Assembly (NCBI GenBank): GCA_964596915.1
Contig: CAZQWN010000002.1
Coordinates: 1,507-65,506, forward strand
From: an uncultured Methanobrevibacter sp.
Lineage (GTDB): Archaea > Methanobacteriota > Methanobacteria > Methanobacteriales > Methanobacteriaceae
DNA length: 64,000 bases
Direction: 5' to 3'
The notes beneath the pieces were generated by a model, which was given only the letters and a program-made list of their open reading frames with translations, did no database searches and had not been told where the DNA came from. Position 1 is the first letter of the stretch, and each line of letters begins with the position of its first letter. The position numbers and the translations under genes are program-made. Shown here in pieces: positions 1 to 37,482 of the stretch.

Positions 1-341
1 CTTGTCTGATGTGGTGCTTGACTATATGGAGTAGATAATTATGGTTAGAAGCAGACAGAGTAGGCATGAGCGTGTTGAGGAAGATCCGATGGCTGGTACA
101 TCCAACTAGAGGATGCAATGTGGTTTTTCTTGTCTTTGTTATTATTTCCTGGAATATGCAGGTGATGATTGATTCAAAAGAGAACATTCAGAAGAGATGC
201 AAAAAAAGACTGTTGAGATTGAGCGGGGCATTCAGTTGGATGGGGTGCAGGATACAAGCAACTGTTCGCCTCAGGGTTATGCTAAGATGGTTAAGGTATA
301 AGAATCCGTCGACGGGCAAGCTCATCATGGTTGAAGGTTAA
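1..341 (+). pseudogene. Frame-disrupted 3' remnant of a MotA/ExbB-like membrane-protein gene; copy 1 of the direct repeat flanking the ATPase cassette. It probably continues upstream of the window.
   Basis: nt 1-20 and 119-341 align with 3059-3078 and 3086-3310. The protein-like reading (EEMQKKTVEIERGIQLDGVQDTSNCSPQGYAKM.., then ..NPSTGKLIMVEG*) is split over two frames. The tracked ORF 66-341 is mostly Arg/Trp-rich out-of-frame text. About 98 nt (21-118) are absent from copy 2. Confidence 0.5.
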
Positions 342-551
342 TTTATATTATATTAAACTAACGGTTACGGGTGTGGCTGTTATTTTAATTAATTGTTTTT
401 TTATTTTACTCTGGATTCATATCTTTTTTTTTAGTGGTTAGTGTGTTATTGATAAAATCTTTTTAAAATTGTTTTGAGTTTGTAAAATTGCTTCTATGCT
501 AAAAATTTCATCATATATTAAGAAACTTTAAATTTTAAGAATTTAAATAAG

Positions 552-559
552 TTTATATA
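552..559 (+). promoter_or_regulatory. Candidate archaeal TATA box for the ATPase/nuclease operon
   Basis: TTTATATA lies about 50 nt upstream of the ATG at 611. A GGAG Shine-Dalgarno sequence at about 598-601 precedes the start codon. Confidence 0.3.
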
Positions 560-610
560 TGTCTAATTTTATAAATTATAGTAAGTAAATTAACCAATGG
601 AGAAAATATT

Positions 611-1882
611 ATGGCTGCTGAAATGTTACTTGAAATTGAAAATTTAGGTCTTATCAATAAAGCGGATTTGGAGATTGGAAAAATAAATGTTATTGTTGGT
701 AAAAACAGCACAGGTAAATCCACTTCAAGCAAGTTTCTATTTTCACTTTTAACAGCAGCATCTAGTGAAGGAACCCAATTGGCAAACAATAATATTCATT
801 TCAGATTGTTAAATTTTGTAGAGTATTGGAAAGTCAAAACTTCACAGGAAATGGAATCCAAATTCAATCAGGTAAAAAATTCCCTAATCAATAATCCGAT
901 ATCTCCAGAATTATTTGAAGAAGCATATTCTCAAATCACTATAATTTTAGAAGGAGAAGATTTTAAAGATAAGGAATTGTGCATTAATGATTTGAATAGT
1001 TTATATCATATTATTGAACTCAATAATGATGAGAATGTTAGGTATATCACTGTTTTTAATGCGTTGGTGGAATCAGAATATGGAAGTTCATTAAACAGAT
1101 TTCGCAATGCCCATATTAAGTTTCATTGTGATGAATTCAATCAGGATATTAAAATTGGTGATGAAAAAAGTGAAACCCGCATCAGCAAAGATTTTCTAAA
1201 TTACTTTAATTTCCAAAATGTTATTTACATTGATTCTCCTTCAATCTTAGAAAACAATCGTAGAAGTTCACAGTATCATTTACAAATGCTTGAGAGAAAA
1301 CTTAAAAAGATAAAAAGAGCAGATGATGTTTATGGTGATGAATTTTATAAGGATTTAAATGGATTTAAAACCAGTATGGATGAATTAATTGATGGAAAAT
1401 TTGAATATGTTCCATCAGAAGACATATTCATATTTAATAAGGATGGTGAAACCTTTTCCATGCAAAATACTGCTTCAGGACTTAAACAGTTAGCAACTAT
1501 TCAATTATTGCTTGATAATAATGAATTAACAAAAAACAGTTTTCTGATATTGGATGAGCCTGAAATCAATTTGCATCCTGGTTTTCAGGTGGAATTTGCA
1601 AAAATCCTGGTTTTAGCAGCTAGGGACTTGAACATTACGTTATATGTCAATACTCACAGTCCATTTTTTGCAGAAGCAATGGAAGCATATTCAAGATATT
1701 ATGATTTAGTGGAGGATACAAATTTTTACTTGACAGAAAAAGTGGATGGTGTTGAGAAATATAATTACAATTTACTTGAAAATGATGAAATCATTGAGGT
1801 ATATGATAATTTAGGAAACCCCTTTGACATTATCCATAAAGTCAAAGTCCAAGCGGATTTAAAAGACGATTTGGGGGATTAG
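611..1882 (+). CDS. ABC/SMC-like (AAA_15/AAA_21-type) ATPase with no fused nuclease domain
   Basis: Walker A is GKNSTGKST near the N-terminus. After a long helical insert come a signature-like ASGLKQ, Walker B/D-loop FLILDEPEINLHP and H-loop NTHSP. A GGAG RBS lies upstream. Confidence 0.8.
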   Translation: MAAEMLLEIENLGLINKADLEIGKINVIVGKNSTGKSTSSKFLFSLLTAASSEGTQLANNNIHFRLLNFVEYWKVKTSQEMESKFNQVKNSLINNPISPELFEEAYSQITIILEGEDFKDKELCINDLNSLYHIIELNNDENVRYITVFNALVESEYGSSLNRFRNAHIKFHCDEFNQDIKIGDEKSETRISKDFLNYFNFQNVIYIDSPSILENNRRSSQYHLQMLERKLKKIKRADDVYGDEFYKDLNGFKTSMDELIDGKFEYVPSEDIFIFNKDGETFSMQNTASGLKQLATIQLLLDNNELTKNSFLILDEPEINLHPGFQVEFAKILVLAARDLNITLYVNTHSPFFAEAMEAYSRYYDLVEDTNFYLTEKVDGVEKYNYNLLENDEIIEVYDNLGNPFDIIHKVKVQADLKDDLGD

Positions 1883-1883
1883 C

Positions 1884-2618
1884 ATGACATTTAATAATAA
1901 GGATTTTGAAGATTTGCTGAATTTCTTTAAAAATCAAGATAATTTTCCAGATTATGCCCGTAAGTCATTTGATAAATTCAGTGAAGTGTCTAAATCAGAA
2001 AATGAATACAAATATCCATTAATTGATGATGATGGTTGCATTTTTGATTTAGACAATATGTGCTGGAATAGTCATCTGAAGAAAAATGGGCATGTTAAAG
2101 GAAATCGTCCATCATCTGTCGATGCATTACATTTTGAAAATGGTAGGATGTATCTGATTGAATTTAAAGGAACTTTTAATACCACTTTAGATTTAGAAGA
2201 AGTTATGGATAAATGCAGTGAAAAATTGGATGATGCTGATTTAATAGATGCTCTTAATGGTGTTAAGAACAGGTATGATGATGAGATATTATGTAATTTG
2301 AAAATTAAGCCTTCTGATTCATTGTTTTTGACTTTACCTAAAATTTATAAGTATTATTGCGAAAAAATGTGTTTGGAGTATAATAAAGAAGAATTTATCT
2401 CATGGCTTTTAAAAGTTCCAAAAAGGCTGTATGTTGTATTTTTAAATGATGCTTATGAAAGCGAAGGAAATGAGAGTAAAAGTTATAAATATCTAAGAAT
2501 GGACAATAAGCTACAAAAAAGATACGCTCCATTTAAGGAACTTGCAAATATGGAAAATTCAATTCTCACTCAGAATGAATTTAAAGAAGGATTCATGAAA
2601 GAATTCTTTAATAATTAA
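1884..2618 (+). CDS. Hypothetical protein with a PD-(D/E)xK nuclease-like motif, translationally coupled to the ATPase
   Basis: The ATG lies 1 nt after the ATPase stop (TAG-C-ATG), and GGGGGA lies 7 nt upstream. The motif SVDALHFENGRMYLIEFKG reads as D-x12-E-x-K flanked by hydrophobic strand-like segments. I recognise no other family. Confidence 0.55.
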   Translation: MTFNNKDFEDLLNFFKNQDNFPDYARKSFDKFSEVSKSENEYKYPLIDDDGCIFDLDNMCWNSHLKKNGHVKGNRPSSVDALHFENGRMYLIEFKGTFNTTLDLEEVMDKCSEKLDDADLIDALNGVKNRYDDEILCNLKIKPSDSLFLTLPKIYKYYCEKMCLEYNKEEFISWLLKVPKRLYVVFLNDAYESEGNESKSYKYLRMDNKLQKRYAPFKELANMENSILTQNEFKEGFMKEFFNN

Positions 2619-2909
2619 ATATATTGAAAGTTGTTAATTGCGTTTTGTTTAATTCAGGATATAATTGGGATATTATATCATTTAAATTTTTGACACTAGA
2701 TAAACACTTAAATCATCTGAAATACATTTCTATTCGTTCTAGATTTGACCTGTAACATTTCATTATTGATTTCATCAATTGTTATATAATTCATGTGTCT
2801 ATTCTCCGTTGATTTTAATCTAAAAATCCTTTTAGGATTATCTTATCTGTTTTGTTGTGAAACTTCCATTTATTTTTGAATAAATCCGTTTGCATCACCA
2901 TCTCTTAAA

Positions 2910-3310
2910 TTGGGTGCGGGGGACATCAACACTCTGCCATCATCTCTGACAATTGCTTTTAAAACCACTATTGAGGGTATAGGTTCCGGTGCGTTGTGTT
3001 ATGTGCTTGGAAAAATTAGAAAACGGTGGTGTGATAGGGCTGTGACTGATTTGGATGCCTTATCTGATGCGGTGCTGGTTATTGCTGTGGGTTTTTTGGT
3101 TTTTGTTATTATTTCCTGGAATATACAGGTGATGATTGATTCAAACGAGAACATTCAGAAGAGATGCAAAAAAAGACTGCTGAGATTGAGCGGGGCATTC
3201 AGTTGGATGGGGTGCAGGATACAAGCAACTGTTCGCCTCAGGGTTATGCTGAGATGGGCAAGGTTTATAAGGATCCGTCGACGGGAAAACTGATAATGGT
3301 TGAGGGTTGA
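2910..3310 (+). pseudogene. C-terminal fragment of a MotA/TolQ/ExbB-like proton-channel gene; copy 2 of the flanking direct repeat, frameshifted
   Basis: SLTIAFKTTIEGIGSGALCYVLGKIRKRW..DLD resembles the conserved last TM region of MotA/ExbB. After the A7 run near 3168 the plausible reading moves to another frame (EEMQKKTAEIERGIQLDGVQDTSNCSPQGYAEMGKVYKDPSTGKLIMVEG*, stop 3308-3310). There is no N-terminal half. Confidence 0.5.
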
Positions 3311-3443
3311 TGCACAGCCCTTCTTTATTTTATTTTTATGATTAATTATTTTCATAGTTTAATGAACAACTTATTTTTTAATCAGTCTTTTGAGTAATTA
3401 TTTTAATGCTATTTTTAAATTGTAGCTTTTTTCATAAGTTAAT

Positions 3444-3495
3444 GTAGCAGTCCAAGAATCATTTTTACAAAATGATAAAATCATTATGTAAGAGA
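3444..3495 (+). mobile_element. Solo copy of an approximately 50-nt IS-end-like sequence
   Basis: CCAAGAATCATTTTTACAAAAT..TAAAA.CATTATGTAA.AGA recurs in reverse orientation at about 9687-9741. There it lies immediately 3' of a TnpB remnant. Confidence 0.45.
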
Positions 3496-4149
3496 ATATA
3501 CGTCAAATATGTCCATGTTAAGATTGTTGTCTTTTAGGATTTTTAATAATTTTTTATATTTTATGTTTTGGTTTTGACCCAAGTGTATTTCTCAGGTTAT
3601 TTAGTTTTTCTTTATCGTCTTCACATTCGATTATTTCGTTTAAGTTTTCAAGTCCTCATTTAAGAAGGAATTCATCTGTTTAAATTGGAATTTATATTCA
3701 ATCATAAAATTATTTATATCTATATGGCATAAATATAATTGTTAATAAAATTAACAAAACGGAAAGTAGTCCTAGGATAGCTTGTTAATCCTTATGCTAC
3801 TAAAAGTATAACCGCCAAGAATTTTTACCAAATCTACAATAATTTGGTAAAGCACTATATGCAAATATGCAATGAATGTGTGCATGTGATTTTGAATGGC
3901 TACAACAATTTGGATAAATGAAGCGGTTAAGCAAATGTTGAAATTAAAGAGTGTTGAACTGGTTGGATTTGGAAAACAGACATTTTTTAAAAGGTCTTAA
4001 AGATGACGCACCATCCAATATAATGAGCATCAGTGGCATTGAAGCAATCTGATAAACATGATGAGATAAGAATTTAGAAAAGTTGGATGGGGTATTGCAC
4101 TCTGATGGCCAGCCAACAGTGAATTAACGAAACACAGTTACGGATAAGC

Positions 4150-4965
4150 ATGATATTTCTAGACAGCACATATTTAATCGGATTAATTTTAATAGGCATC
4201 TGTGCAGGTTTTGCATCTGGACTTTTAGGTGTTGGAGGAGGATTTTTAATCGTACCTCTTCAGTACTTTCTGCTTAAATATGTGGGTGTAAATCCTGATC
4301 TTGCAATGCTGATTTCATTGGGTACCAGTCTTGCAATCATTATTCCAACATCAATGAGCGGTGCTTACAGACACACAAGAACCATGGACAATATCCTGAA
4401 GCCCGGAATTCAACTGGGGGTCTTCGGTATAATCGGCGGCGCAGTTGGAGGATTTGTCGCATCAGGGCTCCCGTCAAGAGTATTAGAGATAATATTCGGT
4501 TGTTTGCTGCTGTTTGTAGTTGTTAAAAACATTATTGATATAAATAAAGAACGTGATGAAGCTAAAATTCCTTTCAATTTGCTAACAAGTGGAATCATCG
4601 GTCTTTTTGTAGGTTTTTCATCAGGACTTTTGGGTATCGGCGGGGGAGTATTTTTAATAGCTATATTAACCTCACTTCTAGGTTTTTCTTTAATTGAAGC
4701 TATCGGAACCTCTTCAGTATTTATCTGCCTCACAGCAGTTGGAGGATTTTTATCATATATCGTAACCGGCTGGGGAGTAAGTACATTTCCGTATTCTATT
4801 GGATATGTAAGCATTATAAATTTCTTGATGATTTCCTGTTTTTCAGTACCTTTAGCATCCATAGGTGCTAAATTCGCACATAGAATTCCTCAAAAAAAGT
4901 TAAAAATAATATTTTCAGTAGTGGTATTTTATATAGCATTAAAAATGCTCGGAATTTTACCATAG
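4150..4965 (+). CDS. TSUP (TauE/SafE) family anion/sulfite exporter-like membrane protein
   Basis: Polytopic membrane protein with two Gly-rich repeats (GLLGVGGGFLIVP and GLLGIGGGVFLIA) typical of TauE/SafE. Confidence 0.8.
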   Translation: MIFLDSTYLIGLILIGICAGFASGLLGVGGGFLIVPLQYFLLKYVGVNPDLAMLISLGTSLAIIIPTSMSGAYRHTRTMDNILKPGIQLGVFGIIGGAVGGFVASGLPSRVLEIIFGCLLLFVVVKNIIDINKERDEAKIPFNLLTSGIIGLFVGFSSGLLGIGGGVFLIAILTSLLGFSLIEAIGTSSVFICLTAVGGFLSYIVTGWGVSTFPYSIGYVSIINFLMISCFSVPLASIGAKFAHRIPQKKLKIIFSVVVFYIALKMLGILP

Positions 4966-4974
4966 GTGATTAAC

Positions 4975-5340
4975 ATGGGTGAAGAAAGAAAAGTTGGAGA
5001 AAATTTCGATGAAAAGACTGCCGGTGACATCTTTAATAAATTAAAAAATGTTGAAGGCAAAATAAAACCAAAAAAAGAAGACAGCAAGTTTAAAAAGATT
5101 GCAGATTTGATGAATGAGGCAAAATACTTGGAAAAGAAGGGTCAATTGGAAGAGGCAAGTGAACTGTATAAACAGGTTATCTTTACATTGCCTGATTCTA
5201 AAAGAGCTTATGAAGCGTTAATTGGAATATATCAAAGTCAGGGTGATGTTGACAGTGAAAAGGATATTTTGATGAAAGCTATTGGTAATTGTAAAGATGA
5301 TGCTGAGTTTAAAAAGAGATTGGATGAAATCAGGAGTTAG
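4975..5340 (+). CDS. Small TPR-like helical protein
   Basis: The ATG at 4975 is preceded by AGGTGA; the track start at 4966 is a GTG. The sequence is Lys/Glu-rich and includes the TPR-like stretch EEASELYKQVIFTLPDSKRAYEALIGIYQSQGD. Confidence 0.55.
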   Translation: MGEERKVGENFDEKTAGDIFNKLKNVEGKIKPKKEDSKFKKIADLMNEAKYLEKKGQLEEASELYKQVIFTLPDSKRAYEALIGIYQSQGDVDSEKDILMKAIGNCKDDAEFKKRLDEIRS

Positions 5341-5351
5341 GAGGTAATAAT

Positions 5352-6644
5352 ATGAGGAGGAAAGAAATAATTCTTTTTATGACAGTTGGAACAGGGGTTA
5401 ATGGTAGTTCTGGTGAAGATGGTTTTGGAATACTTGCTCAAAAGTTATATTCTACAATTACCAAGATTTATCCTCATCATATAGTATTTTTTGCCTCTGA
5501 AAAGTCCAAACACACTATTGATTATATTGAAGCGTTGTTCAAAAAGGATAATGATGAATTTATTTTAGATGAAGATTATCAGATTGTTCCACTTGAAGCT
5601 ATTGATGATTTCAATGCATGCTTTGAAGTTTTTGAGTCTAAAATATGGGATTTCGGATACTCTGAAAACAAGAATGATTATCAGATAATAATGGATTATA
5701 CCTCTGGGACCAAAACCATGTCTGCAGCAATGGCCTGCTGTGGAATGTTTTATAGGACTGATTTGATATCAATTGGGGGGGATAGGTCAACCGGTGAGGT
5801 ATCTGCTGGAACTGAACTTATAAACTATCAGAATCTATATAAGATTTATGATAGGTTCGTTCTTATCAGATCAAGACAAAATTTTAATTCCTATCGTTTC
5901 AGAGAGTGCATTGAGATATTAAAATATATTGTTGATTTAAGTATTCATAAGGACTCATTTTTAGCTCTTTGTGAGGGATATTATTCCTGGGACATTATGG
6001 AGTTTGAAGAGGCATATAATTATTTAAGACAAGTCAATGCTAACCATATGGAGATTGTGGAAATCAAATCAATTCTAAAGAAAAATCTCAATGCTTTAGG
6101 AATTATTGTAAATTCAAAATCTGAAAACTTGAAGAACTGTTATATTCTTGCAAGTCTGATTAATAATTCTATAAGAAGGGCTGAGGAATATAAATATGAT
6201 GATGCGATTGCACGTTTGTACCGTTCATTTGAACTGATAGCTCAAATCAGATTGAATAAATACAATATTGAAAGTTCAGATGTCGATGTTTCAGTTTTAA
6301 AAGAGAATGATGTTTCAGATGTATTCATTGAAGATTTGGAAAAAACAAGAGAAGATGGAAAAATCAGAATTGGTCTTATTAAGGATTTCTTACTTTTAAA
6401 TGAACTGAATGATGAATTGGGTAAGATATATCTTGAAAATGAAAACAAAATCAAAAACATGACTCAAAAGAGAAACCGTTCAATATTGGCTCACGGTTTG
6501 GATTCACAATCAAAACAGGATTTTGATGATTTTTTAGAGGTTGTTCTTTCATTAGCCCGTAAATTGGATAAAGACATGAACAAATTCCTATATGAAACCA
6601 AATTCGCAAAATTTGATTTAAAATTAAAAATCGATCAGGTTTAA
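5352..6644 (+). CDS. CARF-HEPN protein (Csx1/Csm6-like; resembles the Cas02710/TIGR02710 group), predicted cyclic-oligoadenylate-sensing RNase
   Basis: The N-terminal Rossmann-like strand is ILFMTVGTG. The CARF-type loop is MDYTSGTKTMSAAMA. The C-terminal HEPN R-x4-6-H motif is KRNRSILAHG. GGAGGT lies upstream of the ATG. Confidence 0.7.
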   Translation: MRRKEIILFMTVGTGVNGSSGEDGFGILAQKLYSTITKIYPHHIVFFASEKSKHTIDYIEALFKKDNDEFILDEDYQIVPLEAIDDFNACFEVFESKIWDFGYSENKNDYQIIMDYTSGTKTMSAAMACCGMFYRTDLISIGGDRSTGEVSAGTELINYQNLYKIYDRFVLIRSRQNFNSYRFRECIEILKYIVDLSIHKDSFLALCEGYYSWDIMEFEEAYNYLRQVNANHMEIVEIKSILKKNLNALGIIVNSKSENLKNCYILASLINNSIRRAEEYKYDDAIARLYRSFELIAQIRLNKYNIESSDVDVSVLKENDVSDVFIEDLEKTREDGKIRIGLIKDFLLLNELNDELGKIYLENENKIKNMTQKRNRSILAHGLDSQSKQDFDDFLEVVLSLARKLDKDMNKFLYETKFAKFDLKLKIDQV

Positions 6645-6692: not shown

Positions 6693-9479
6693 TTAGAATG
6701 CAATACTTGCATAATAACCTTTAAGATTATAATTGTAATTGTTCCAATTAACCACATTTCCAAATGAATTTCTGGAACTTGTCGGATCGCCTACAATCCA
6801 AGTATCACCAATCAATACTTGGGTCCAAACGTGTCCATATGTACTTCCACTTAATGTGAAATAGCAAGTACCGTGAACATATCTTGCTGCAAGGCCTGCA
6901 GTTCTATACATGGCAACTAATAAATGAGCTTGGTCAACACAGTTACCTGTTTTTGAATTTAAAGTGCCGACAGCACCATATTTTGTGTCGTAATAGAAAC
7001 TGTAAGATATGTAATCACGCACATAATTGTATATTGCAGTAGCTTTAGCTTTGTCTGTTGTTAATCCTGATGTAATTGAATTAACAATTGATTTAATTTT
7101 ACTATTGCCCACTTGACAATTTGTGGAAGACTTTAAGTATGCCGCTAAGTTTGTTATTGTGTTCTTAGTGTTTAAAGAACTTGAACTGCTTGATTCATAA
7201 GTTTTGATTGATACATAGTTTGGCATGATTGAATTATCATCATAAAATGCCACTATACGCGCTGTAGCATAGACTAAACCATTGTATCCTATTGTTCCAA
7301 CTTTTGAACTCACAGAATTCGGCATAGTTCCTTTTGATTTACAGGTATTTACAATACTTTTTGCAACTGCAAGGTAATCATATAAATTACCTAAGTTAGA
7401 TGCAGATTGTGGATTAGCGGGACTATTAACTTGTTGAACTTCAATATCTTTCTTATTATTGTTTTTTAAGTTAATAATTGCTTGTGATGCTAAATATACG
7501 TATTCTGCTGTTGAGTAAGTTACAGATCCAATTTGAACAGTTTTCGGCAATCCCTCATTGCTTTCAATGTATTTTTTAACGTATTGGGATGCTGCAATAA
7601 TTTCTTTGAGTGTTACTTTATCGACAACAGTTATTTTTGAAGAACCTGATGTTTTTCCATCAGTGTATGTTACTGTATATTCACCTTTAGTTAATCCGGA
7701 TAGTGTAAGTTTTGCAATACCATTTGCGTTTGTTTGTACAGATTCTTCTTTGCCATTTAATGTAAATTTAATGGTAGTAGCTATAGGATTTTCTTGACCA
7801 TCAAGTACTTGTACTTGGAATGTGGATGATGTACTTGATGGTACGGCCACATCGCTTGCGATAAATTTGGTACCATTAACTAGGACATGTTTTGTTACTT
7901 TTGAAGAAGTGTAGTAAGTTGTATCAACTTTAACATCAATAGGATAATATCCAATTTGTTCATTTACTGCCAGTTTAGCAACTCCGTTTTCATCAGTTTT
8001 TACTTTAGAAGATTTTTCGTTTAAAGTAAATTGAACTTCTATGCCATTAAGATTGGATCCTGTCTTGTTTTTCACCGTTACTTGGTAAACTGATCCATCG
8101 TTATGTTCCATCACTAAATCGTTTGCAGTAATATTCACTTTTTGTTTTGAAATCACAAGGCTACCTGTTCCTTTATTGTAATCCTTCAAGCCTGCTGTTG
8201 AATATGTGTATTTAACAGTGTATGTATTAGGCTTTAAATCACCTATTGCAAGTTTTGCTACACCCTTGCTGTCAGTAGTAACAGAGGTTGTTTTACTATT
8301 TAATGTAAATTTAATAGTTTTATTTGCTAAAGCTTTTCCGGCGGAGTTAGTGGCGGTTACGGAAAATGAAGAACCGTCATTATACTGCATTTTTAATGTA
8401 CTTGCCTTTAAGGTTGTAGTTGACTCTTTAACGTACAATTTTTTAGATCCTGAAACTGCATTGTATTTGCTGTTTCCATTGTATTTATAAGTAATAGTGT
8501 AAGTACCCTTCGAAAGTGAGGAGATAGTTATTTTAGCTTCTCCGTTCGCATTGGTCGAAGCAGTTACTTGTTTTTTATTATATGTAAATTGAATCTTGGC
8601 ATTTTTCAAAGGTTCATTTTTGCTGTTTTTCAATACAACTGTGTATGTACTTTTGGTATTGGGAAGTACATATTTGTTTGATGCAGTAATTTTACTGCTA
8701 GCTTTTTTAATGGTAATTGTTTTTGTAACTGTTTCTTTTGAGTAGGGATTATATAACTTTATACTATATGTTCCCGGCAAAAGAGTTGAAATGGATATTT
8801 GAGCATATCCTTTTGAATCAGTTTTAATGGTGTAAGTCTTACCATTAAGTGTGATTTTAACATTACTTTCTTGTAAATTACCATTATCCCTTAAAAACTT
8901 CGCTGAATAGTTTTTATCAGCACCATATCTTGTGACCATATCTGATGCTGAAATTGAAGAAATAACTTTAATCTTTTTGGAAACTGAACTTTTTATGTAT
9001 TGTGAATCTCCATTATATGTGGCAGTTATAGTGTAAGTTCCTTTGCTAAAAGCAGAGGCGGTAAAGTGAGCAATACCCTGTTCGGAAGTGGTTGCTTTGT
9101 ATGTTTTACCGTTTATTTTGTAAGAAACGCTTTGATTTGCTAAAATGTTTCCATCAGTATCTTTCAATACAATTTTAAACACTGTTGCTGTTTTTGAGTA
9201 ACGTGCATTGTAGGTTTCTATTTTAGTGTTTACCTTAGTAGTGTTATTTGAAACATCATTTCCTGAAGATTCGCTAGTGTTGGTACTATCGCTCTGTAAA
9301 GAGGTAGTTTCCAAATCTGATTTTAAAGTAGGTTCTAAATTTGATGCTTCTGAATTATCTAAAGATAATTTTCCATCATCAACTATTAAATCTGAAGTTA
9401 CTGTACTTGTAACATTACTTAATTCAGTTGCGCTAACAGTTCCCAGTAATATGAAGAACATAAAAACAACTGAAATCAA
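6693..9479 (-). CDS. Adhesin-like surface protein: signal peptide, about 9 Ig-like (Big) repeats, pseudomurein-binding repeats and a C-terminal transglutaminase-like cysteine protease domain
   Basis: Repeated modules of the form KxTLNGKTYTxKTDSKGxAxxxxSxLxxGTYT. PMBR-like segments include TVQIGSVTYSTAEYVYLASQAI and VGTIGYNGLVYATARIVAFY. The Cys-His-Asp triad context is GNCVDQAHLL, YGHVWTQVL and VGDPT. Confidence 0.8.
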   Translation of the reverse strand: MISVVFMFFILLGTVSATELSNVTSTVTSDLIVDDGKLSLDNSEASNLEPTLKSDLETTSLQSDSTNTSESSGNDVSNNTTKVNTKIETYNARYSKTATVFKIVLKDTDGNILANQSVSYKINGKTYKATTSEQGIAHFTASAFSKGTYTITATYNGDSQYIKSSVSKKIKVISSISASDMVTRYGADKNYSAKFLRDNGNLQESNVKITLNGKTYTIKTDSKGYAQISISTLLPGTYSIKLYNPYSKETVTKTITIKKASSKITASNKYVLPNTKSTYTVVLKNSKNEPLKNAKIQFTYNKKQVTASTNANGEAKITISSLSKGTYTITYKYNGNSKYNAVSGSKKLYVKESTTTLKASTLKMQYNDGSSFSVTATNSAGKALANKTIKFTLNSKTTSVTTDSKGVAKLAIGDLKPNTYTVKYTYSTAGLKDYNKGTGSLVISKQKVNITANDLVMEHNDGSVYQVTVKNKTGSNLNGIEVQFTLNEKSSKVKTDENGVAKLAVNEQIGYYPIDVKVDTTYYTSSKVTKHVLVNGTKFIASDVAVPSSTSSTFQVQVLDGQENPIATTIKFTLNGKEESVQTNANGIAKLTLSGLTKGEYTVTYTDGKTSGSSKITVVDKVTLKEIIAASQYVKKYIESNEGLPKTVQIGSVTYSTAEYVYLASQAIINLKNNNKKDIEVQQVNSPANPQSASNLGNLYDYLAVAKSIVNTCKSKGTMPNSVSSKVGTIGYNGLVYATARIVAFYDDNSIMPNYVSIKTYESSSSSSLNTKNTITNLAAYLKSSTNCQVGNSKIKSIVNSITSGLTTDKAKATAIYNYVRDYISYSFYYDTKYGAVGTLNSKTGNCVDQAHLLVAMYRTAGLAARYVHGTCYFTLSGSTYGHVWTQVLIGDTWIVGDPTSSRNSFGNVVNWNNYNYNLKGYYASIAF

Positions 9480-16390: not shown

Positions 16391-19300
16391 ATGTTTAAAA
16401 ATAGTCAAAAAATATCTATTAGCAAACACTTTTTAATTTCACTGCTGTTTATCGTGCTGATTTTCACATCAGTGGGCATCAGCTTGGATGGCGTATGTGC
16501 TACTGAATTCAATCAAACTGCAGACGGAATTAAAAGTGAATTAATTATGGAAGATAAACTAGGAAATTCTCAGGAAAATGTTTTAAATTCAAATTTGGAG
16601 GTTGATAATTCATTGGGTGCTCAAAACAGTGAAATTTTAGGTAAAACAATTACAGTTGAAGGTGGAAAATTTTCAGATATACAAAATGCTATTGACCGGG
16701 CAGATGAAGGGGATACAATAAAACTGAAAGGGACTTATGTTGCTGAAAAGGTTAATGGTTCTATCAGAGTTGCCAAACCGTTAAAATTCACGGCGGATTC
16801 CACGGCAACATTGGACGGAAAGAAGATGACTTTAATTTTCGATGTCGTTAGGGCAGCTAAAGGATCAACATTTAACAACATAAAGTTTGTTAATGCTTAT
16901 AATACTGGAAATGGGGGTGGAATCTATGTTAAAACTCAAGATGTCAAAGTGACAAACTGTATTTTCCAGGATTGTCATGCTTGGCAGGGTTCCGGAATTT
17001 GTACGCCATATAATAATTATTCGGCAGTAAATCTGTGGGTTGAAAACTGTCAGTTCATAAACAATATTGCGCAAAGAACTGCAGGTGGAATTTCGGCCTA
17101 TGGTAACAATACAACATTTATCAATTGTCTGTTTGATTCAAACGGAGTATATGCTTCTGATGATCTTGAATTTCCTTACGGTGGAGCAGTTCAAATAGGA
17201 TTGGATGACTCCTCTCCAAAATTTTACGTTTATGATTGTAAATTTTACAATAATTTTGTCGAAGCAAAAAATGAACTTTCTCATGGTGGTGCAGGATGTG
17301 TTAGAGACGGAATTACCTATGAAAGGTGTCTTTTTGTAAATAATTCAGCAGGACAGGGCGGAGCCTTAACCTATCATGCATCAGGTATGATTAAAGACTG
17401 CACTTTCATAAATAACAGCGCCACTTATTATGGTGGAGGATTATCTACCGGATTAATGGAAATGGCTATGAATTTAAATATTCAAAACTGTTTATTTGAA
17501 GGAAATACTGCTCCAATTGGAGGTGCAGTGCAATTATTCGGTAAAAATATCGACATTGAAAACAGTAACTTTAACAACAACAAAGCTTCACAGACTGGTG
17601 GGGCCATAAATATTGAAGCGGAATATGTGGATATTTCAGATTCCTCATTCGACCACAATATCGCAAACATTGACGGTGGTGCGGTATATATCAACGGAAA
17701 AAGAACAACAATTGAAGATTCATCATTCACTAACAATCATGCAATACCTGATGTTAATAAATTAAATGATGGATTGGGTGGAGCTATCTATATCAACAGT
17801 ACTTTAGCAGATATCGCCAATAATGAATTTTACTTCAACACTGCTAGAAACGGTAGTGCAGTTTATTATGATAAATATGGAACTTACCTGAAGTTAAACG
17901 ACAATATTTTCTATCAAAATCAGGCATGGGTTTATGCATTGCCAATCTATGCGCAAGATATCTACTATGGTCAAACTGAAGATTTCGGTGCCGTAATTCA
18001 TGGAGGAAATAACATAGCTAAATATAATGACGTTGCTGTTTCAAACGCAATATATAATGCGGCAGATAGTCGTTACTTGACATTGGATGGTGAATCACCA
18101 GTTTCAGGAGCAACCACCAGTGGACATCTGTATCAGGATGATCGTGAGTACAATATGGATATTCTGCTGACAGTAACACATGAAGATGGAAGTGTAGTAT
18201 ACAATAAAACATTAAAATCAGACAGTTTCGGTGAAGTTTCAGACAGTCTGAAGAATTTAAAAGCCGGAAAATATTATGTTACTGCAAAACATTATGAAGA
18301 TACCTATTACAAGGCAATAACAAACACAACAACATTTTCAGTAATTCCGCTAGTTGACGTTAAAATCAAAAAAACAGCAACTCCTGAAGTAGCAGATTTC
18401 AAAGACACTGTTGTCTGGACATTAAATGTCACTAACGACGGTCCAAACGTTGCAACTGACGTAATTATAAGGGATGCTCTGCCTCAGGGATTGATTTATC
18501 TTGAAGACGATACAAAAGGCGCTTACAATTCATCAACAGGAGTCTTAAAGATTGCTTCCCTCAATGTCGGTGAAGTTTACATTGCAAACATTAAAACTTC
18601 AGTAAATAAAACCGGCGAAATAACTAATGTTGCTGATGTAAGCTCAAAGGAACAAGATTATAATTTAGACAACAATCAGGGTCAGTCAAAAATCAATGTA
18701 AAACCTGCCGCTGATTTGGAAGTAATAAAAACAGCTAATGCATCCTCTTTAAATATCGGAGATTTAGTAAAATGGACAATAGATGTAGTTAACCATGGTC
18801 CTAATAGTGCTACAGGCGTTTCTGTCAGTGATGTGCTTCCAAAGTCTCTGATTTGGGTTAGTGATGATGGTGCAGGTAAATATGATCACAATTCAGGTGG
18901 CTGGAATATTGGAAATTTAGACGTTAACGGACATGTAAAACTGAACATTGTATGTAGGGTTAATGCAACCGGAACAATTAAAAACGAAGTTTCAGTTTCA
19001 GGAAACGAATATGATCATGACAAATCAAATAATCATGATGATGCAGTAACTAACGGAAATCTTGCTGCTGATTTGAGCATTGTCAAGGAGGCAAGTTCCG
19101 CTGTGCTAAATTATCATGATGTTGTAAAATGGACTTTAACAGTATCTAATAACGGTCCGAATACTGCAACAGGCGTTAAAATTTCAGACGTATTGCCTAA
19201 AGGTTTTACTTACATTAATTCGTCCAGACCTTATAGCAATGGTGTTGTGAATATAGGTAATTTGGCAGTTGGTGCGAAAGCGGTTGTTGAAATTTACTCA

Positions 19301-22300
19301 AGAGCTGACAACACAGGTAGCTTTGTTAATGTTGCCAGTGTTGAAGGAAGTGAGTTTGACCCTGTAGTGTCCAATAACAGGGATGATGCTTCTGTTAATG
19401 TTAATCCTGCAATTGATTTGAAAGTAACAAAAGACATCAGCAACACTTCACCTAATTTGGGTGATAAAGTTACATGGACATTGACTGTATCCAATAATGG
19501 TCCTGACAGGGCTACTGGTGTTGTTGTCAGTGAAGCGCTTCCTAAGTCTTTGATTTGGGTTAGTGATGACGGTTCTGGTAAATATGATCATAATACTGGT
19601 AAATGGGATGTTGGAACATTAAATGTAAATGGTCAGGCAAAATTAAACATTGTCTGCAGAGTTAATACAACTGGTGTTATTGTAAACACTGCTTCAGTTA
19701 CAGGAAATGAATTTGACTGGAATTCATCAAGTAATAATGATCAAAAACAGATTAATGTTGCAAAATCTAGTGATTTAAGTATTGTTAAAGAGGTTGCTTC
19801 AGGTGTCGTTAATTATTTGGATGTTGTTAAATGGACACTGACAGTCACAAACAAAGGTCCTGATGCAGCCACTGGCGTTTGGATTTATGATACATTACCT
19901 AAAGGTTTCATTTATTTAAACTCCACAAAACCTTATGTTAATGGACGCATTAACATTGGTAATTTGGCGGTTGGCGCAAAAGCAAGTGTGGACATTTATT
20001 CCAAAGCTAACATTACAGGAACTTTCGTCAATATTGCTAGTGTAGATGGCAACGAATACGACCATAACCCTTCAAACAATAAGAATAATGTTTCCGTAGT
20101 GGTAAAACCTGCATCTGATTTGAAAGTAACAAAAGACATCAATACTTCTGCACCGAATTATCAAGGGCTAGTTAAATGGACATTGACTGTATCCAATAAT
20201 GGTCCTGACAGGGCTACTGGTGTTGTTGTCAGTGAAGCGCTTCCTAAGTCTTTGATTTGGGTTAGTGATGACGGTTCTGGTAAATATGATCATAATACTG
20301 GTAAATGGGATGTTGGAACATTAAATGTAAATGGTCAGGCAAAATTAAACATTGTCTGCAGAGTTAATACAACTGGTGTTATTGTAAACACTGCTTCAGT
20401 TACAGGAAATGAATTTGACTGGAATTCATCAAGTAATAATGATCAAAAACAGATTAATGTTGCAAAATCTAGTGATTTAAGTATTGTTAAAGAGGTTGCT
20501 TCAGGTGTCGTTAATTATTTGGATGTTGTTAAATGGACACTGACAGTCACAAACAAAGGTCCTGATGCAGCCACTGGCGTTTGGATTTATGATACATTAC
20601 CTAAAGGTTTCATTTATTTAAACTCCACAAAACCTTATGTTAATGGACGCATTAACATTGGTAATTTGGCGGTTGGCGCAAAAGCAAGTGTGGACATTTA
20701 TTCCAAAGCTAACATTACAGGAACTTTCGTCAATATTGCTAGTGTAGATGGCAACGAATACGACCATAACCCTTCAAACAATAAGAATAATGTTTCCGTA
20801 GTGGTAAAACCTGCATCTGATTTGAAAGTAACAAAAGACATCAATACTTCTGCACCGAATTATCAAGGGCTAGTTAAATGGACATTGACTGTATCCAATA
20901 ATGGTCCTGACAGGGCTACTGGTGTTGTTGTCAGTGAAGCGCTTCCTAAGTCTTTGATTTGGGTTAGTGATGACGGTTCTGGTAAATATGATCATAATAC
21001 TGGTAAATGGGATGTTGGAACATTAAATGTAAATGGTCAGGCAAAATTAAACATTGTCTGCAGAGTTAATACAACTGGTGTTATTGTAAACACTGCTTCA
21101 GTTACAGGAAATGAATTTGACTGGAATTCATCAAGTAATAATGATCAAAAGCAAATTTCTGTGCCAAAAGCCAGTGATTTGAGTATTGTTAAAGATGTAA
21201 GTTCTGGTGCTGTAAATTATTTGGATGTTGTTAAATGGACAATTACTGTTACAAATAAGGGTCCTGATGCGGCCAGTGGTGTTAAAATCCAGGATGTGCT
21301 GCCGAAAGGTTTTGTTTATTTGAATTCTTCAAGGCCTTACGCTAATGGCATTATAAATATTGGCAATTTGGCAGTTGGCGCAAAAGAGGTAGTTGAAATT
21401 TATTCCAAAGCAAATGGCACAGGTAATTTCGTTAATGTTGCCAGTGTTGAAGGAAGTGAGTTTGATCCTGTAGTGTCCAATAACAGGGATGATGCTTCCG
21501 TTAATGTTAATCCTGCAGCAGATCTCTCAGTAACTAAGGTAGTCAACAACTCAGCACCGAACTATCATGACAATGTAAAATGGACATTGACTGTATATAA
21601 TAGAGGTCCTGACAGTGCAACAGGCGTTGTTGTAACTGAAATGCTTCCGAAATCCCTGATTTGGGTTAGTGATGACGGTGCGGGCAAATATGATCACAAT
21701 TCCGGCGTATGGAATGTTGGAAATATTCAAAAAGGCCAAACTAAAACCTTAAACATAATTACAAAAGTCAATGGAACAGAATTGATTGAAAACAATGTTT
21801 CAGTTCACGGAAATGAATTTGATTATAATCAGAGCAACATAAATAATACTCAAGTTATTACTGTTGCAAACGCTTCTGATCTGGCGGTAATTAAATTAAC
21901 TAACGCTTCAGAAGTAAATTATTTGCAATTGGTTAAATGGACAATAATTGCATCTAATAATGGTCCAAATAAGGCAACAGAAGTAATTGTTGAGGAAATT
22001 CTGCCAACAGGATTAAAAGTAATTAATTACACTGCATCCAAAGGATTTTATGACAACGGAATCTGGTCGGTTTGCTGTATTGAAAGTGGTGAAAGCCAGA
22101 CTCTTGAACTTATTTGTCAAGTTTTACAGACCGGCGATTTAACCAACATTGTTAAAATCACATGTAAGGAATACGATCCTGATTTATCAAACAATATTGC
22201 AAACGAATCAGTTTTCGTAGCAAAGTCTTCAGATATTAATGTTGTCAAAACAGTTGATAATTCAAATCCTAATTTCGCAGACATAATTGAATGGACAATA

Positions 22301-23476
22301 ACTGTTACAAACAATGGTCCGGACGCCGCTGAGAATATCCAGATTATGGATTTAATGGGTTCTGGATTGAATTTGATCAGTTATGAAGCAAGCAAAGGCA
22401 GTTATGCGGATAACATATGGAATATTGATTATTTGGCAAACGGCTCCAGTGAATCCCTTGTACTTCGCTGTGAGGTAAACACTTTAGAGGATGTGGAAAA
22501 CATTGCTATGTATGTCCCGTCCCAATATGATTGGAACGAATCAAACAGCAAAGATAGTGAAAAAATCACTGTCAATCCTATAGCTGATTTGGATATTATC
22601 AAATTAGTTAACGTATCTGATGCAAATTACCTTGATTTGGTCGAATGGACATTAATAGTCACAAATTATGGTCCAAATGATGCAAGCAATGTCTTTGTCA
22701 GTGATATTGTTCCTGAAGGTTTAGTTATTGTTGACGTATTTGGAGATGGATTTTATTCAGATTCAATTTGGGATATTGGTGATTTGGCCAATGGCGAGTC
22801 AAGACAACTGACAATTGTCTGCAAAATCCAAGCCACTGGTAACTTTATAAATAGTGCAAATGTCTGGGCTAGCGAGACAGATCCGAACTTGAGCAACAAT
22901 GATGATGAGAATTATCTGTATGTGTATCCTGCAAGTGATTTGTCAATCAGAAAAACAGTTTCAAAATACAGGTATTCTGTAGGCGATTTGGTAAAATATT
23001 TCATTAAATTAACTAATAATGGTCCTGATGGGGCAAAAAACATTAAAGTTAGTGAAATAATGGATAAATCATTAAAATTAAAATCATTCCGTGCAAGTAG
23101 CGGTGATTTTGATGAAGTTGATGGTATATGGTCATTGGATTTCCTGGATGCTGGTGAATCAGCAACTCTGGAGATTGAAGCTGTAGCTATGAAAGCAGGT
23201 ATTGTATTAAATAAAGTTTCAGTTACAAGCGATAATTTTGACCAGGATTTATCCAACAACAATGATACTGTTTCAATAGATGTTGCTGAAAAGCAAAAAT
23301 CTCATGATGTAAACTCTAAAAACAATGATAACTATCCTGAAAATAGGCAAAATAATGGATTTTCAGATTCCATTCTATTAAAGAACAGATGTGGTAATCC
23401 TATTATGGTTATTGTATTGTTGTTCGTGTTTACTATGGGTGCATTCTATGGTAACACTATCTTAAAGAAAAGATAA
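16391..23476 (+). CDS. Giant adhesin-like surface protein: signal/TM, right-handed beta-helix (PMP-type) repeats, about 15 DUF11-type (TIGR01451-like) repeats and a C-terminal TM anchor
   Basis: The N-terminal half has repeated GGAI/GGAV..N.F.NN motifs. The rest is repeated units of the form L.V.K......Y.D.V.WT..V.N.GP..A.GV.V.D.LP.GL. GGTGA precedes the ATG. The C-terminal hydrophobic helix is followed by KKR. Confidence 0.85.
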   Translation: MFKNSQKISISKHFLISLLFIVLIFTSVGISLDGVCATEFNQTADGIKSELIMEDKLGNSQENVLNSNLEVDNSLGAQNSEILGKTITVEGGKFSDIQNAIDRADEGDTIKLKGTYVAEKVNGSIRVAKPLKFTADSTATLDGKKMTLIFDVVRAAKGSTFNNIKFVNAYNTGNGGGIYVKTQDVKVTNCIFQDCHAWQGSGICTPYNNYSAVNLWVENCQFINNIAQRTAGGISAYGNNTTFINCLFDSNGVYASDDLEFPYGGAVQIGLDDSSPKFYVYDCKFYNNFVEAKNELSHGGAGCVRDGITYERCLFVNNSAGQGGALTYHASGMIKDCTFINNSATYYGGGLSTGLMEMAMNLNIQNCLFEGNTAPIGGAVQLFGKNIDIENSNFNNNKASQTGGAINIEAEYVDISDSSFDHNIANIDGGAVYINGKRTTIEDSSFTNNHAIPDVNKLNDGLGGAIYINSTLADIANNEFYFNTARNGSAVYYDKYGTYLKLNDNIFYQNQAWVYALPIYAQDIYYGQTEDFGAVIHGGNNIAKYNDVAVSNAIYNAADSRYLTLDGESPVSGATTSGHLYQDDREYNMDILLTVTHEDGSVVYNKTLKSDSFGEVSDSLKNLKAGKYYVTAKHYEDTYYKAITNTTTFSVIPLVDVKIKKTATPEVADFKDTVVWTLNVTNDGPNVATDVIIRDALPQGLIYLEDDTKGAYNSSTGVLKIASLNVGEVYIANIKTSVNKTGEITNVADVSSKEQDYNLDNNQGQSKINVKPAADLEVIKTANASSLNIGDLVKWTIDVVNHGPNSATGVSVSDVLPKSLIWVSDDGAGKYDHNSGGWNIGNLDVNGHVKLNIVCRVNATGTIKNEVSVSGNEYDHDKSNNHDDAVTNGNLAADLSIVKEASSAVLNYHDVVKWTLTVSNNGPNTATGVKISDVLPKGFTYINSSRPYSNGVVNIGNLAVGAKAVVEIYSRADNTGSFVNVASVEGSEFDPVVSNNRDDASVNVNPAIDLKVTKDISNTSPNLGDKVTWTLTVSNNGPDRATGVVVSEALPKSLIWVSDDGSGKYDHNTGKWDVGTLNVNGQAKLNIVCRVNTTGVIVNTASVTGNEFDWNSSSNNDQKQINVAKSSDLSIVKEVASGVVNYLDVVKWTLTVTNKGPDAATGVWIYDTLPKGFIYLNSTKPYVNGRINIGNLAVGAKASVDIYSKANITGTFVNIASVDGNEYDHNPSNNKNNVSVVVKPASDLKVTKDINTSAPNYQGLVKWTLTVSNNGPDRATGVVVSEALPKSLIWVSDDGSGKYDHNTGKWDVGTLNVNGQAKLNIVCRVNTTGVIVNTASVTGNEFDWNSSSNNDQKQINVAKSSDLSIVKEVASGVVNYLDVVKWTLTVTNKGPDAATGVWIYDTLPKGFIYLNSTKPYVNGRINIGNLAVGAKASVDIYSKANITGTFVNIASVDGNEYDHNPSNNKNNVSVVVKPASDLKVTKDINTSAPNYQGLVKWTLTVSNNGPDRATGVVVSEALPKSLIWVSDDGSGKYDHNTGKWDVGTLNVNGQAKLNIVCRVNTTGVIVNTASVTGNEFDWNSSSNNDQKQISVPKASDLSIVKDVSSGAVNYLDVVKWTITVTNKGPDAASGVKIQDVLPKGFVYLNSSRPYANGIINIGNLAVGAKEVVEIYSKANGTGNFVNVASVEGSEFDPVVSNNRDDASVNVNPAADLSVTKVVNNSAPNYHDNVKWTLTVYNRGPDSATGVVVTEMLPKSLIWVSDDGAGKYDHNSGVWNVGNIQKGQTKTLNIITKVNGTELIENNVSVHGNEFDYNQSNINNTQVITVANASDLAVIKLTNASEVNYLQLVKWTIIASNNGPNKATEVIVEEILPTGLKVINYTASKGFYDNGIWSVCCIESGESQTLELICQVLQTGDLTNIVKITCKEYDPDLSNNIANESVFVAKSSDINVVKTVDNSNPNFADIIEWTITVTNNGPDAAENIQIMDLMGSGLNLISYEASKGSYADNIWNIDYLANGSSESLVLRCEVNTLEDVENIAMYVPSQYDWNESNSKDSEKITVNPIADLDIIKLVNVSDANYLDLVEWTLIVTNYGPNDASNVFVSDIVPEGLVIVDVFGDGFYSDSIWDIGDLANGESRQLTIVCKIQATGNFINSANVWASETDPNLSNNDDENYLYVYPASDLSIRKTVSKYRYSVGDLVKYFIKLTNNGPDGAKNIKVSEIMDKSLKLKSFRASSGDFDEVDGIWSLDFLDAGESATLEIEAVAMKAGIVLNKVSVTSDNFDQDLSNNNDTVSIDVAEKQKSHDVNSKNNDNYPENRQNNGFSDSILLKNRCGNPIMVIVLLFVFTMGAFYGNTILKKR
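19476..21148 (+). repeat. Perfect 702-bp tandem repeat, about 2.4 copies, inside the giant adhesin gene
   Basis: Units 19476-20177 and 20178-20879 read identically line by line. A third partial unit runs from 20880 to about 21148 and then diverges. Each unit encodes two DUF11-type domains (234 aa). Confidence 0.9.
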
Positions 23477-35948: not shown

Positions 35949-36338
35949 TTAATTCACCATCCAATATAGTGCTAAAATACTTGGCAGGGCAATTAGGATG
36001 GTATTACGGGCCATTTTGAAGCGATGTACTTTCCATTCTTTTTCACTTAATTCCTTGGTTTTTGGGATTTTCAAAACAGTCAAGATAATGCTTGCAGCGA
36101 GGAATATGAAATAAGCATTGATTATAAATAGATATCCTGCTCCAAGTAGCATATTCCATTGCCCGTTAGCAATTGAATATCCGCAGGTGCATAATGGTGG
36201 CATCAAAGCGGTTGCGATTGCAACACCAGGAATTACGGTATTTGTTTTATCAAATCTTGTTTGTCCGATGATTCCGGCAATTCCACCAAAGAATGCAATT
36301 AAAAGGAAAAACATGATACAATGATGTTGATCAATCAA
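35949..36338 (-). pseudogene. C-terminal fragment of a DUF389 family membrane protein, 5'-truncated next to an IS remnant
   Basis: GVAIATALMPPLCTCGYSIANG is the conserved DUF389 motif. Only about 129 aa remain, with a TTG pseudo-start. The TnpB remnant begins a few nt beyond. Confidence 0.55.
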
Positions 36339-36389
36339 ATTTAATCAGCAGAATAAAAGAAGATTTATTTGAGATAATGCTCAACCTCA

Positions 36390-36550
36390 CAAAGAATGCG
36401 GTGCACATCATGACCGTGATGTTAATGCCGCAATTAATATCCTTAATAAAGGATTACAAATCGTAGGGACTACTGTGCAGTAAAAAAATCCAAAATTTTT
36501 TTTTTTGGTTTGCGAATCCCCGACCTCATAGGTTGGGGAAGTTCAACAAA
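36390..36550 (+). mobile_element. tnpB: IS200/IS605-family TnpB C-terminal remnant with a terminal hairpin
   Basis: The region translates to ..ECGAHHDRDVNAAINILNKGLQIVGTTVQ*. This is followed by the perfect hairpin TCCCCGACC-tcata-GGTTGGGGA (with one internal wobble), typical of element 3' ends. Confidence 0.65.
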
Positions 36551-36831
36551 AAATGTATCTACTTTCCCAACAAAGTAAAAGAACCCAAAAAATACAAAAG
36601 AAAGAAAAAATTATTCAAACCTAAATTCACGGCAAAATACAAACCAAATTTCTAAAAAACAAAGAACCACATAAAAAATATTTAAAAACAGGAGAAAAAA
36701 TCATGAAAAAATCTTAACCTGATGGCATTGGTTTAAAAATGTAATTATGGGGGATTAATTCCATTTATAGTTTATTTATCAATGAAAATGATGATGAATA
36801 AAGTATATTATTAAGAGGTAAAAAAGAAAAA

Positions 36832-37113: not shown

Positions 37114-37114
37114 A

Positions 37115-37405: not shown

Positions 37406-37482
37406 ATTATCACCATATAAGTTTTTATATCTAGTTCTATTTAATTATTGTTAATTTAAAATAGTTTGAGTTTTATGAATTA

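Follow-up and report, generated by a model that had tools for sequence, protein, structure and literature searches.

The RNases of the Csm6/Csx1 type are well understood. In Csm6 of T. thermophilus (TtCsm6), the exchange K137A abolished binding of cyclic tetra-adenylate (cA4), mutation of R415, N416 and H422 led to loss of RNase activity, T59 and S60 belong to motif I, T81 contacts adenine, and Y161 and N164 matter for cA4 cleavage (PMC10897365). Activation at a distance has been proposed for type III effectors that are encoded elsewhere in the genome (PMC11229360), and CARF homologues are abundant outside CRISPR-Cas systems (PMC12669027). Here we describe an RNase gene of this type in DNA of an uncultured Methanobrevibacter sp., analysed as one stretch of 64 kb that is called the window throughout. 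Database matches likewise placed the window in this genus. The gene (5352 to 6644, plus strand) follows genes for a TauE/SafE (TSUP) family membrane transporter and a small tetratricopeptide repeat (TPR) protein, and it is an orphan, without cas neighbours.

With such RNases well studied and CARF genes common away from CRISPR loci, the gene is in itself an ordinary one. What is mildly useful is its history: one csm6 lineage has escaped its type III-A operon, persists in intact form in about 36 species of the principal genus of rumen methanogens, occupies several chromosomal sites and was never re-linked to cas genes.

Domain architecture, descent and conservation of the RNase

The protein matched the family TIGR02710 ("CRISPR-associated CARF protein") with 185.4 bits against a cutoff of 83.9 (residues 34-404, profile positions 5-383 of 384), and the public annotation, which assigns it to the same family, is correct. 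Its best PADLOC model was CARF1--CARF_HEPN (PDLC01802; E 4.7e-138, residues 5-422), which is also the best PADLOC model for a III-A-linked Csm6 (locus L055). The following features were recognised.

5352 to 6644, plus strand: orphan CARF-6H-HEPN protein of Csm6/Csx1 type, TIGR02710 family, 430 aa (profiles and fold)
5385 to 5396, plus strand: CARF motif I, V12-G13-T14-G15, after beta-strand 1 (invariant in orthologues, common to III-A-linked paralogues)
5694 to 5726, plus strand: CARF motif II, D115-Y-T-S-G-T-K121-T-M-S-A125 (aligned to TtCsm6 D-L-T133-S-G135-T-K137-A-M-S-A)
5877 to 6071, plus strand: helical 6H middle domain, residues 176-240 (PF22205, 29.6 bits against a cutoff of 27.6; helical in the model)
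6132 to 6560, plus strand: HEPN RNase domain, residues 261-403 (PF09670, the Csm6 HEPN family, E 2.5e-29)
6471 to 6494, plus strand: HEPN catalytic motif, R374-N375-R-S-I-L-A-H381 (aligned to TtCsm6 R415-N416-x5-H422)

The only solved structures that the sequence matched in the PDB were the TtCsm6 entries 5FSH, 8JH1, 8JBB and 8JBC, at E 4e-5 with the single sequence and E 3.6e-17 with a family profile. An AlphaFold2 model (mean predicted local distance difference test score, pLDDT, 82; predicted template modelling score, pTM, 0.60) showed an alternating beta-alpha N-terminal part followed by helical domains. TtCsm6 was again the top full-length match of this model in Foldseek (5FSH/8JBB/8JH1; probability 1.0, template modelling score about 0.5), and it was followed by Csm6 proteins of the cyclic hexa-adenylate (cA6) type and then by the CARF-only Cam1, Card1/Can2, Csa3 and ring nucleases (probability 1.0 for the CARF-only matches). 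It was noted that the Pfam model of the Csm6 CARF domain (PF22208) stayed under its threshold, with 20.5 bits against 27.5. The CARF assignment nevertheless follows from the PADLOC coverage, the beta-alpha core of the model, the CARF-only structure matches and the invariant motifs, and the protein combines the sequence and domain features of Csm6/Csx1 RNases, namely a full-length match to the family hidden Markov model, CARF, 6H and a HEPN motif of the form R-x4-6-H. The cOA-dependent RNase activity and the homodimer of such enzymes are predicted for it from motif conservation.

Motif I was matched to G58/T59/S60 of TtCsm6 by its position after strand 1 and not by alignment. In motif II, which has the form T-x-G-x-K, G119, T120 and K121 were invariant in the whole-family alignment and T117-S-G-T-K121 in the orthologues, while R374, N375 and H381 of the HEPN motif were invariant family-wide. 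An earlier sequence-only reading of this DNA had proposed a CARF and HEPN protein of Cas02710 type with Csm6/Csx1 architecture and had called for profile searches. The architecture was borne out, with TIGR02710, HEPN and 6H above their cutoffs and only the Pfam CARF model below; the RNase motif that it had placed at RNRSILAHG also stood, but with the spacing R-x6-H (R374/H381, or R-N-x5-H) instead of R-x4-H, still inside the R-x4-6-H definition.

We assessed the relatives of the protein through a search of representatives at 50% identity, which gave 2,186 clusters. The Methanobrevibacter orthologues made up one of these, and their next relatives among the 50%-identity representatives were at most 44% identical. 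A scan of species-representative genomes yielded 79 loci, in all of which open reading frames (ORFs) were called, proteins were clustered and arrays were sought. Orthologues of the window gene, the orphans, were found at 37 loci (62-85% identity) in about 36 Methanobrevibacter genomes, among them metagenome-assembled genomes (MAGs) of M. millerae, M. thaueri and M. olleyae. The flanks of these 37 loci total 525 kb, with at least 5 kb on both sides at 23 of them, and held no cas genes and no arrays of more than three repeats; the orphans sit among housekeeping and adhesin genes. On IMG/VR viral contigs, the orphan family had no matches.

The paralogues, in contrast, are commonly linked to cas genes. 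Cas10 was present in 11 of the 19 loci with Methanobacteriaceae paralogues (31-51% identity), and cas genes in 13 of the 22 family loci from other phyla. The neighbours of the paralogues were Cas10/Csm1 (with HD, Csm1_B and Palm2), Csm2, Csm3, Csm4, Csm5, Cas6b, Cas2 and Cas1, and arrays of up to 68 repeats follow the III-A-linked loci. In a neighbour-joining tree, the orphan clade was monophyletic and nested in the radiation of III-A-linked Methanobacteriaceae Csm6. Its sister was L059_7512 (L059:7512-8753), the last gene of a csm1-5 operon and 51% identical, and its closest relatives, 26-51% identical, stand at the end of complete type III-A operons. By these sequence comparisons, the RNase gene descends from the csm6 of a Methanobacteriaceae type III-A operon.

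Two further observations concern copy number. In some MAGs, the orphan clade was accompanied by another type of solo Csm6 paralogue (39% identity, without cas neighbours; L056, L058), and one MAG carried two orphan-clade copies in different contexts (L026, L038). Escape of csm6 from III-A loci may have occurred more than once.

The window itself was scanned against Pfam with all ORFs of at least 120 aa and five of the 14 non-overlapping small ORFs. Among these, there was no Cas10, RAMP, Cas1/2/6, CD-NTase or ring nuclease. No CRISPR array was found in the 64 kb, where TRF and a spaced-repeat search gave only coding repeats, and Rfam at gathering thresholds returned no families; a tRNA search was also negative. 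The statement of the sequence-only reading that no Cas10, cyclase, ring nuclease or array is visible in the window was hence upheld. Lying neither inside nor adjoining a CRISPR-cas locus, the RNase gene falls outside a strict definition of a cas gene.

Conservation of the orphan was high. Across 120 database clusters of at least 69% identity, 30% of positions were at least 99% conserved, including motif I, motif II and the HEPN motifs, and all 20 residues that are invariant in a 47-sequence family alignment were present in the window RNase. The orphans and their III-A-linked sisters had 85 conserved positions in common (among them CARF motifs I and II, S49 and the HEPN R-N-x5-H), and the 11 fixed differences between them were all conservative (A/G, I/F, R/K and similar), with none in known ligand-contact motifs. 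Pairwise ratios of nonsynonymous to synonymous substitution (dN/dS) were 0.05-0.17 for the RNase gene, values like those of the TatD, amino-acid kinase and TauE genes that flank it. Judged by this conservation and purifying selection, the orphan RNase gene is functional and not a relic.

Probable source of the activating signal

We consider it fairly probable that the orphan is a trans-acting Csm6/Csx1-type RNase of III-A descent, gated by cyclic oligoadenylate (cOA) from a Cas10 encoded elsewhere in the genome, with no functional tie to the TauE and TPR genes. The csm6 gene has left its III-A operon and now stands alone in the chromosomes of a large clade of Methanobrevibacter from rumen and gut; in the window's genome it landed downstream of an older TauE-TPR pair. 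The N-terminal CARF domain is predicted to bind cOA, most likely cA4 as in TtCsm6, on account of the homology with that enzyme and of pocket motifs identical to those of the III-A-linked sisters. Ligand binding would switch on the C-terminal HEPN RNase, and the active RNase would degrade RNA non-specifically. The cOA made by a III-A Cas10 elsewhere in the genome would thus activate the orphan in trans, adding to the action of the Csm6 paralogues within the III-A locus.

A signal source of this kind is widespread in the genus. We found 1,688 Cas10 matches at E <=1e-20, for which the sources name M. oralis, M. woesei and M. millerae, and every Cas10 examined had kept the GGDD cyclase motif. The complete chromosome of M. 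millerae SM9 holds a III-A locus (L093, CP011266 1302238-1324661) with three Cas02710-type genes beside cas10, and each of the Methanobrevibacter III-A loci L093, L099-L110, L051, L055 and L063 has between one and three Csm6 paralogues of Cas02710 type, with 26-42% identity to the window RNase. A III-A locus is also present in M. intestini (PMC13078230). In the MAG RUG14185, an orphan (L035) occurred together with an array-bearing III-A locus (L055). Wiring in trans to a distant system was one of the two options left by the sequence-only reading, and it is the better supported through the III-A-operon relatives, the same motifs, the GGDD Cas10 of the genus and RUG14185; the other option, a self-contained trio, is contradicted by loci L094-L098, the TauE-RNase loci and the other contexts described in the next section.

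As a separate observation, the Cas10 of SM9 was found to have GGDD but to lack both the HD motif and a Pfam HD match. The III-A system of SM9 probably relies on cOA signalling, since GGDD is kept and HD is absent.

Several points weigh against activation in trans. The orphan and a III-A locus were seen together in one MAG only, where binning errors are possible, and the 64 kb of the source genome that are visible showed no type III locus. The III-A loci already hold one to three Csm6 paralogues of their own, and the benefit of an extra solo copy is not obvious. The tree behind the III-A descent is a neighbour-joining tree without bootstrap, with which the identity values agree. The ligand is assigned by homology to TtCsm6, to which the window RNase is about 18% identical. 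Finally, TtCsm6 Y161 and N164, the residues of cA4 cleavage, correspond to S140 and G143 in the alignment, and a self-limiting ring-nuclease activity therefore cannot be assumed; this difference is not peculiar to the orphan, because the III-A-linked relatives align in the same way.

A role independent of CRISPR appears unlikely. In such a role, the CARF domain would sense a nucleotide not made by Cas10 or an endogenous stress signal, and the RNase would be a stand-alone abortive-infection or regulatory switch. The 525 kb of flanks devoid of cas genes, the strong purifying selection across about 36 species genomes and the abundance of CARF homologues outside CRISPR-Cas (PMC12669027) would all fit, as would the description of the CRISPR-Cas loci of the genus in genomic islands (PMC13078230) and 18 positions that are invariant in the orphans and variable in the III-A-linked sisters. 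However, no alternative cyclase was present among the scanned ORFs of the window, nor was one seen among the annotated neighbours at orphan loci, most of which were only clustered and not scanned. Orphans and III-A-linked sisters have the same CARF pocket motifs, so that nothing points to a new ligand, and III-A loci with a GGDD Cas10 are widespread in the genus. Should orphans persist without Cas10, they would offer a clean natural case for CARF-HEPN function without CRISPR.

We also entertain, tentatively and as a minor possibility, that the orphan clade serves as a "standing receptor" of the core genome. The Csm6 RNase would here be inherited vertically with or without a III-A cassette, and would either serve mobile III-A modules as they arrive or answer a signal not made by Cas10. 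If this were true, a CRISPR-derived effector would have been recruited to a CRISPR-independent role. If, as we favour, cOA from remote III-A loci triggers the orphans, these RNases would contribute to the response to viruses in the dominant methane producers of ruminants.

Gene order around the RNase gene and contents of the window

Three ORFs lie in a row on the plus strand of the window (4150-4965, 4975-5340 and 5352-6644). Besides the RNase gene, the features of this segment are as follows.

4150 to 4965, plus strand: TauE/SafE (TSUP) family membrane transporter, 271 aa (PF01925, E 1.8e-49, full-length match)
4975 to 5340, plus strand: small TPR protein, 121 aa, with its ATG at 4975 (TPR_14, 25.0 bits against a cutoff of 23.5, a marginal match)
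5340 to 5345, plus strand: putative Shine-Dalgarno sequence GGAGGT, 6 nt upstream of the RNase ATG and overlapping the TPR stop codon (read from the sequence)

The gaps are 9 nt between TauE and TPR (4966-4974) and 11 nt between TPR and RNase (5341-5351), and AGGTGAT, likewise similar to a Shine-Dalgarno sequence, was read 5 nt upstream of the TPR ATG. This agrees with the earlier description of three same-strand genes with gaps of 9 and 11 nt and such sequences. The TPR ORF has an alternative in-frame GTG at 4966. Its 121-aa protein is 100% identical to a database protein (P0437), and many of its homologues have TPR matches in Pfam and are named tetratricopeptide repeat proteins in the sources. 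Given the 11-nt gap, the RNase gene is likely to be co-transcribed with TauE and TPR in the window, which we read as an accident of location and not as joint function.

The public database entry that is 100% identical to the RNase is 421 aa long and starts at Met10, leaving out codons 1-9 (window 5352-5378). A start at Met10 would, in the predicted model, cut into the first CARF beta-strand. Residues 1-9 are conserved in the orthologues, and together with this strand and with GGAGGT ahead of Met1 they make the 430-aa form the better call; the annotation has probably set the start nine codons too far downstream.

The comparison of gene orders separates the RNase gene from its neighbours. Relatives at 70-89% identity (L009-L014, L020, L029, L033) share the order TauE-TPR-RNase, and in these genomes the whole block is syntenic (glycosyltransferase, EamA, TauE ... 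YbjQ, DUF2116, TatD, amino-acid kinase), so that the adjacency of the trio carries no functional signal. In the same block, TauE-TPR occurs with the same 9-nt gap and without the RNase gene in L094-L098, where convergent downstream genes come next and no remnant of an RNase gene was found. In five species (L019, L021, L022, L031, L032), TauE and RNase occur without TPR, separated by a spacer of 66-85 nt, and no TPR remnant was found in L019, L021 and L031. The TPR family comprised 246 clusters, all from Methanobrevibacter where the source names an organism, and the TauE-TPR arrangement of L094-L098 was seen for two of its broadly sampled members. RNase orthologues were further encountered in at least four other contexts.

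M. thaueri-like: after MarR, MFS and a 227-aa membrane-anchored protein
M. millerae-like: after a 105-114-aa acidic protein
M. olleyae- and M. ruminantium-like: after MFS and a 91-aa protein
Other: no upstream gene on the same strand

Because TauE-TPR occurs without the RNase gene and the RNase is found in other contexts, the comparison indicates that TauE-TPR is the older two-gene unit, beside which the RNase gene was placed in one sub-lineage. TauE is a syntenic neighbour and not a partner of the RNase.

A self-contained module of TauE/TSUP, TPR and CARF-HEPN proteins, for example with the TPR protein as inhibitor or adaptor of the RNase and the transporter as its output or input, is on these grounds very improbable. 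The spacing on one strand, the Shine-Dalgarno-like sequences before both downstream genes, the recurrence of the trio in relatives and the purifying selection on the TPR gene (dN/dS 0.05-0.15) are in its favour. It is contradicted by the TauE-TPR loci without an RNase gene or remnant, by the TauE-RNase loci without TPR, by the RNase orthologues that follow unrelated genes or none on the same strand, and by synteny that extends through the whole block and makes the adjacency uninformative. Conservation of the gene order as a module, which had been put forward as a check, accordingly failed: the trio occurs in a subset only, and TauE-TPR and TauE-RNase each occur alone. The case is a warning that tight gene spacing does not amount to a functional module without comparative data.

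Least credible is the view that the gene is left over from a vanished type III-A locus, is decaying and no longer functions. The absence of nearby cas genes and three split or truncated orthologues (L049, L050, L064) might speak for this view, but it is at odds with the low dN/dS, with an ORF intact in the large majority of loci and with catalytic and ligand-binding motifs that are all invariant, the split copies being all MAG-derived and possibly assembly errors.

Two other partnerships were considered and dropped. A pair of HEPN toxin and MNT antitoxin does not fit the locus, where the upstream gene encodes a TPR protein without a nucleotidyltransferase match and the downstream gene is a convergent adhesin-like gene. 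A "variable small partner" of the RNase was abandoned because only two of the upstream proteins are tightly spaced to the RNase gene; the 227-aa, 105-114-aa and 91-aa upstream proteins had no BLAST similarity to the TPR protein or to each other, and no Pfam or PADLOC matches.

It was noted that the 66-nt AT-rich spacer between TauE and RNase in L019 (9935-10000) contains TTATAAAA about 20 nt ahead of the ATG. This element could be an archaeal promoter of the RNase gene's own, giving a short-leader transcript.

The slot upstream of TauE also differs between genomes. In the window, 3294-4149 consists of 856 nt without an ORF and was negative in Rfam even at a permissive threshold. In close relatives, the slot is taken by three minus-strand genes (for a 360-aa protein, an EamA transporter and a glycosyltransferase), and window 1-4300 gave no remnants of these. 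In the window's genome, this segment ahead of TauE has been replaced.

The scanned ORFs of the window (GC content about 32%) were housekeeping, adhesin-like or without a family. The housekeeping functions comprise ProRS-type synthetase domains, dCTP deaminase, SpoU methylase, iron-sulfur proteins, 2-oxoacid:ferredoxin oxidoreductase subunits, transporters, SepF, NAC and others. Adhesin-like proteins are typical of Methanobrevibacter, and two large ones were found: 16391-23476 (plus strand; 2,361 aa, 14 DUF11 repeats) and 6693-9479 (minus strand; 928 aa, with Big_1 repeats, pseudomurein-binding repeats and a transglutaminase core). Many species have the 928-aa gene in a conserved, convergent position next to the RNase gene.

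A gene pair at 611-2618 (plus strand) encodes a 423-aa AAA_15/AAA_21 ATPase and a 244-aa protein without a family match. The best PADLOC matches of the ATPase were HEC-02A (E 1.6e-29), PD-T4-4_A, AriA and PtuA, and the partner carries a D...E-F-K string that resembles a PD-(D/E)xK nuclease motif; the two genes probably make up a small defence system. In the M. olleyae-like loci L040, L042 and L045, whose neighbourhood is different, a distantly related pair (29-41% identity) was found 0.4-3 kb away from the orphan RNase, which may point to a small defence islet. At 35949-38297, the match of a 129-aa ORF to DUF389 is confined to the C-terminal half of that domain, with nothing but short unassigned ORFs and gaps in the roughly 2 kb that follow; this may be a degraded gene region.

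Comparison with known systems

Among described enzymes, the window RNase compares most directly with TtCsm6 (TTHB152; PDB 5FSH, 8JBB, 8JH1), a cA4-activated RNase of the TIGR02710/PF09670 families, with which it has the three-domain architecture CARF-6H/HTH-HEPN in common. Motif II and the HEPN R-N-x5-H align residue for residue between the two, T117, G119 and K121 of the window RNase corresponding to T133, G135 and K137, and S49 corresponds to the adenine-binding T81. TtCsm6 R172 differs in sitting in an insertion that is absent from the window RNase.

The loop GGDRSTGEVSAGTELINYQNL (residues 142-162, window 5775-5837) is among the most conserved stretches of the orphan clade and aligns to the TtCsm6 region with the cA4-cleavage residues. 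Its R145 and E155 are invariant family-wide, yet it was modelled at pLDDT <50. The loop may be a ligand-gated lid that becomes ordered only in the dimer or with ligand bound.

The Csm6 paralogues of III-A operons (L059:7512-8753, L055:2180-3394 and the three of L093 in M. millerae SM9, CP011266) belong to the same subfamily as the orphan, at 39-51% identity. They differ from it in their setting, as they directly flank cas10-csm2-csm3-csm4-csm5-cas6b-cas2-cas1 and arrays, which the orphan orthologues never do.

The second parallel is with cOA effectors that act in trans (PMC11229360). That proposal concerns effector-less type III loci that borrow from other type III loci, whereas the window effector lies in no CRISPR locus and the III-A loci of Methanobrevibacter have Csm6 genes of their own. 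What the window RNase has in common with these effectors is that a cOA-sensing protein is encoded away from Cas10, here in a genus with cyclase-competent III-A loci.

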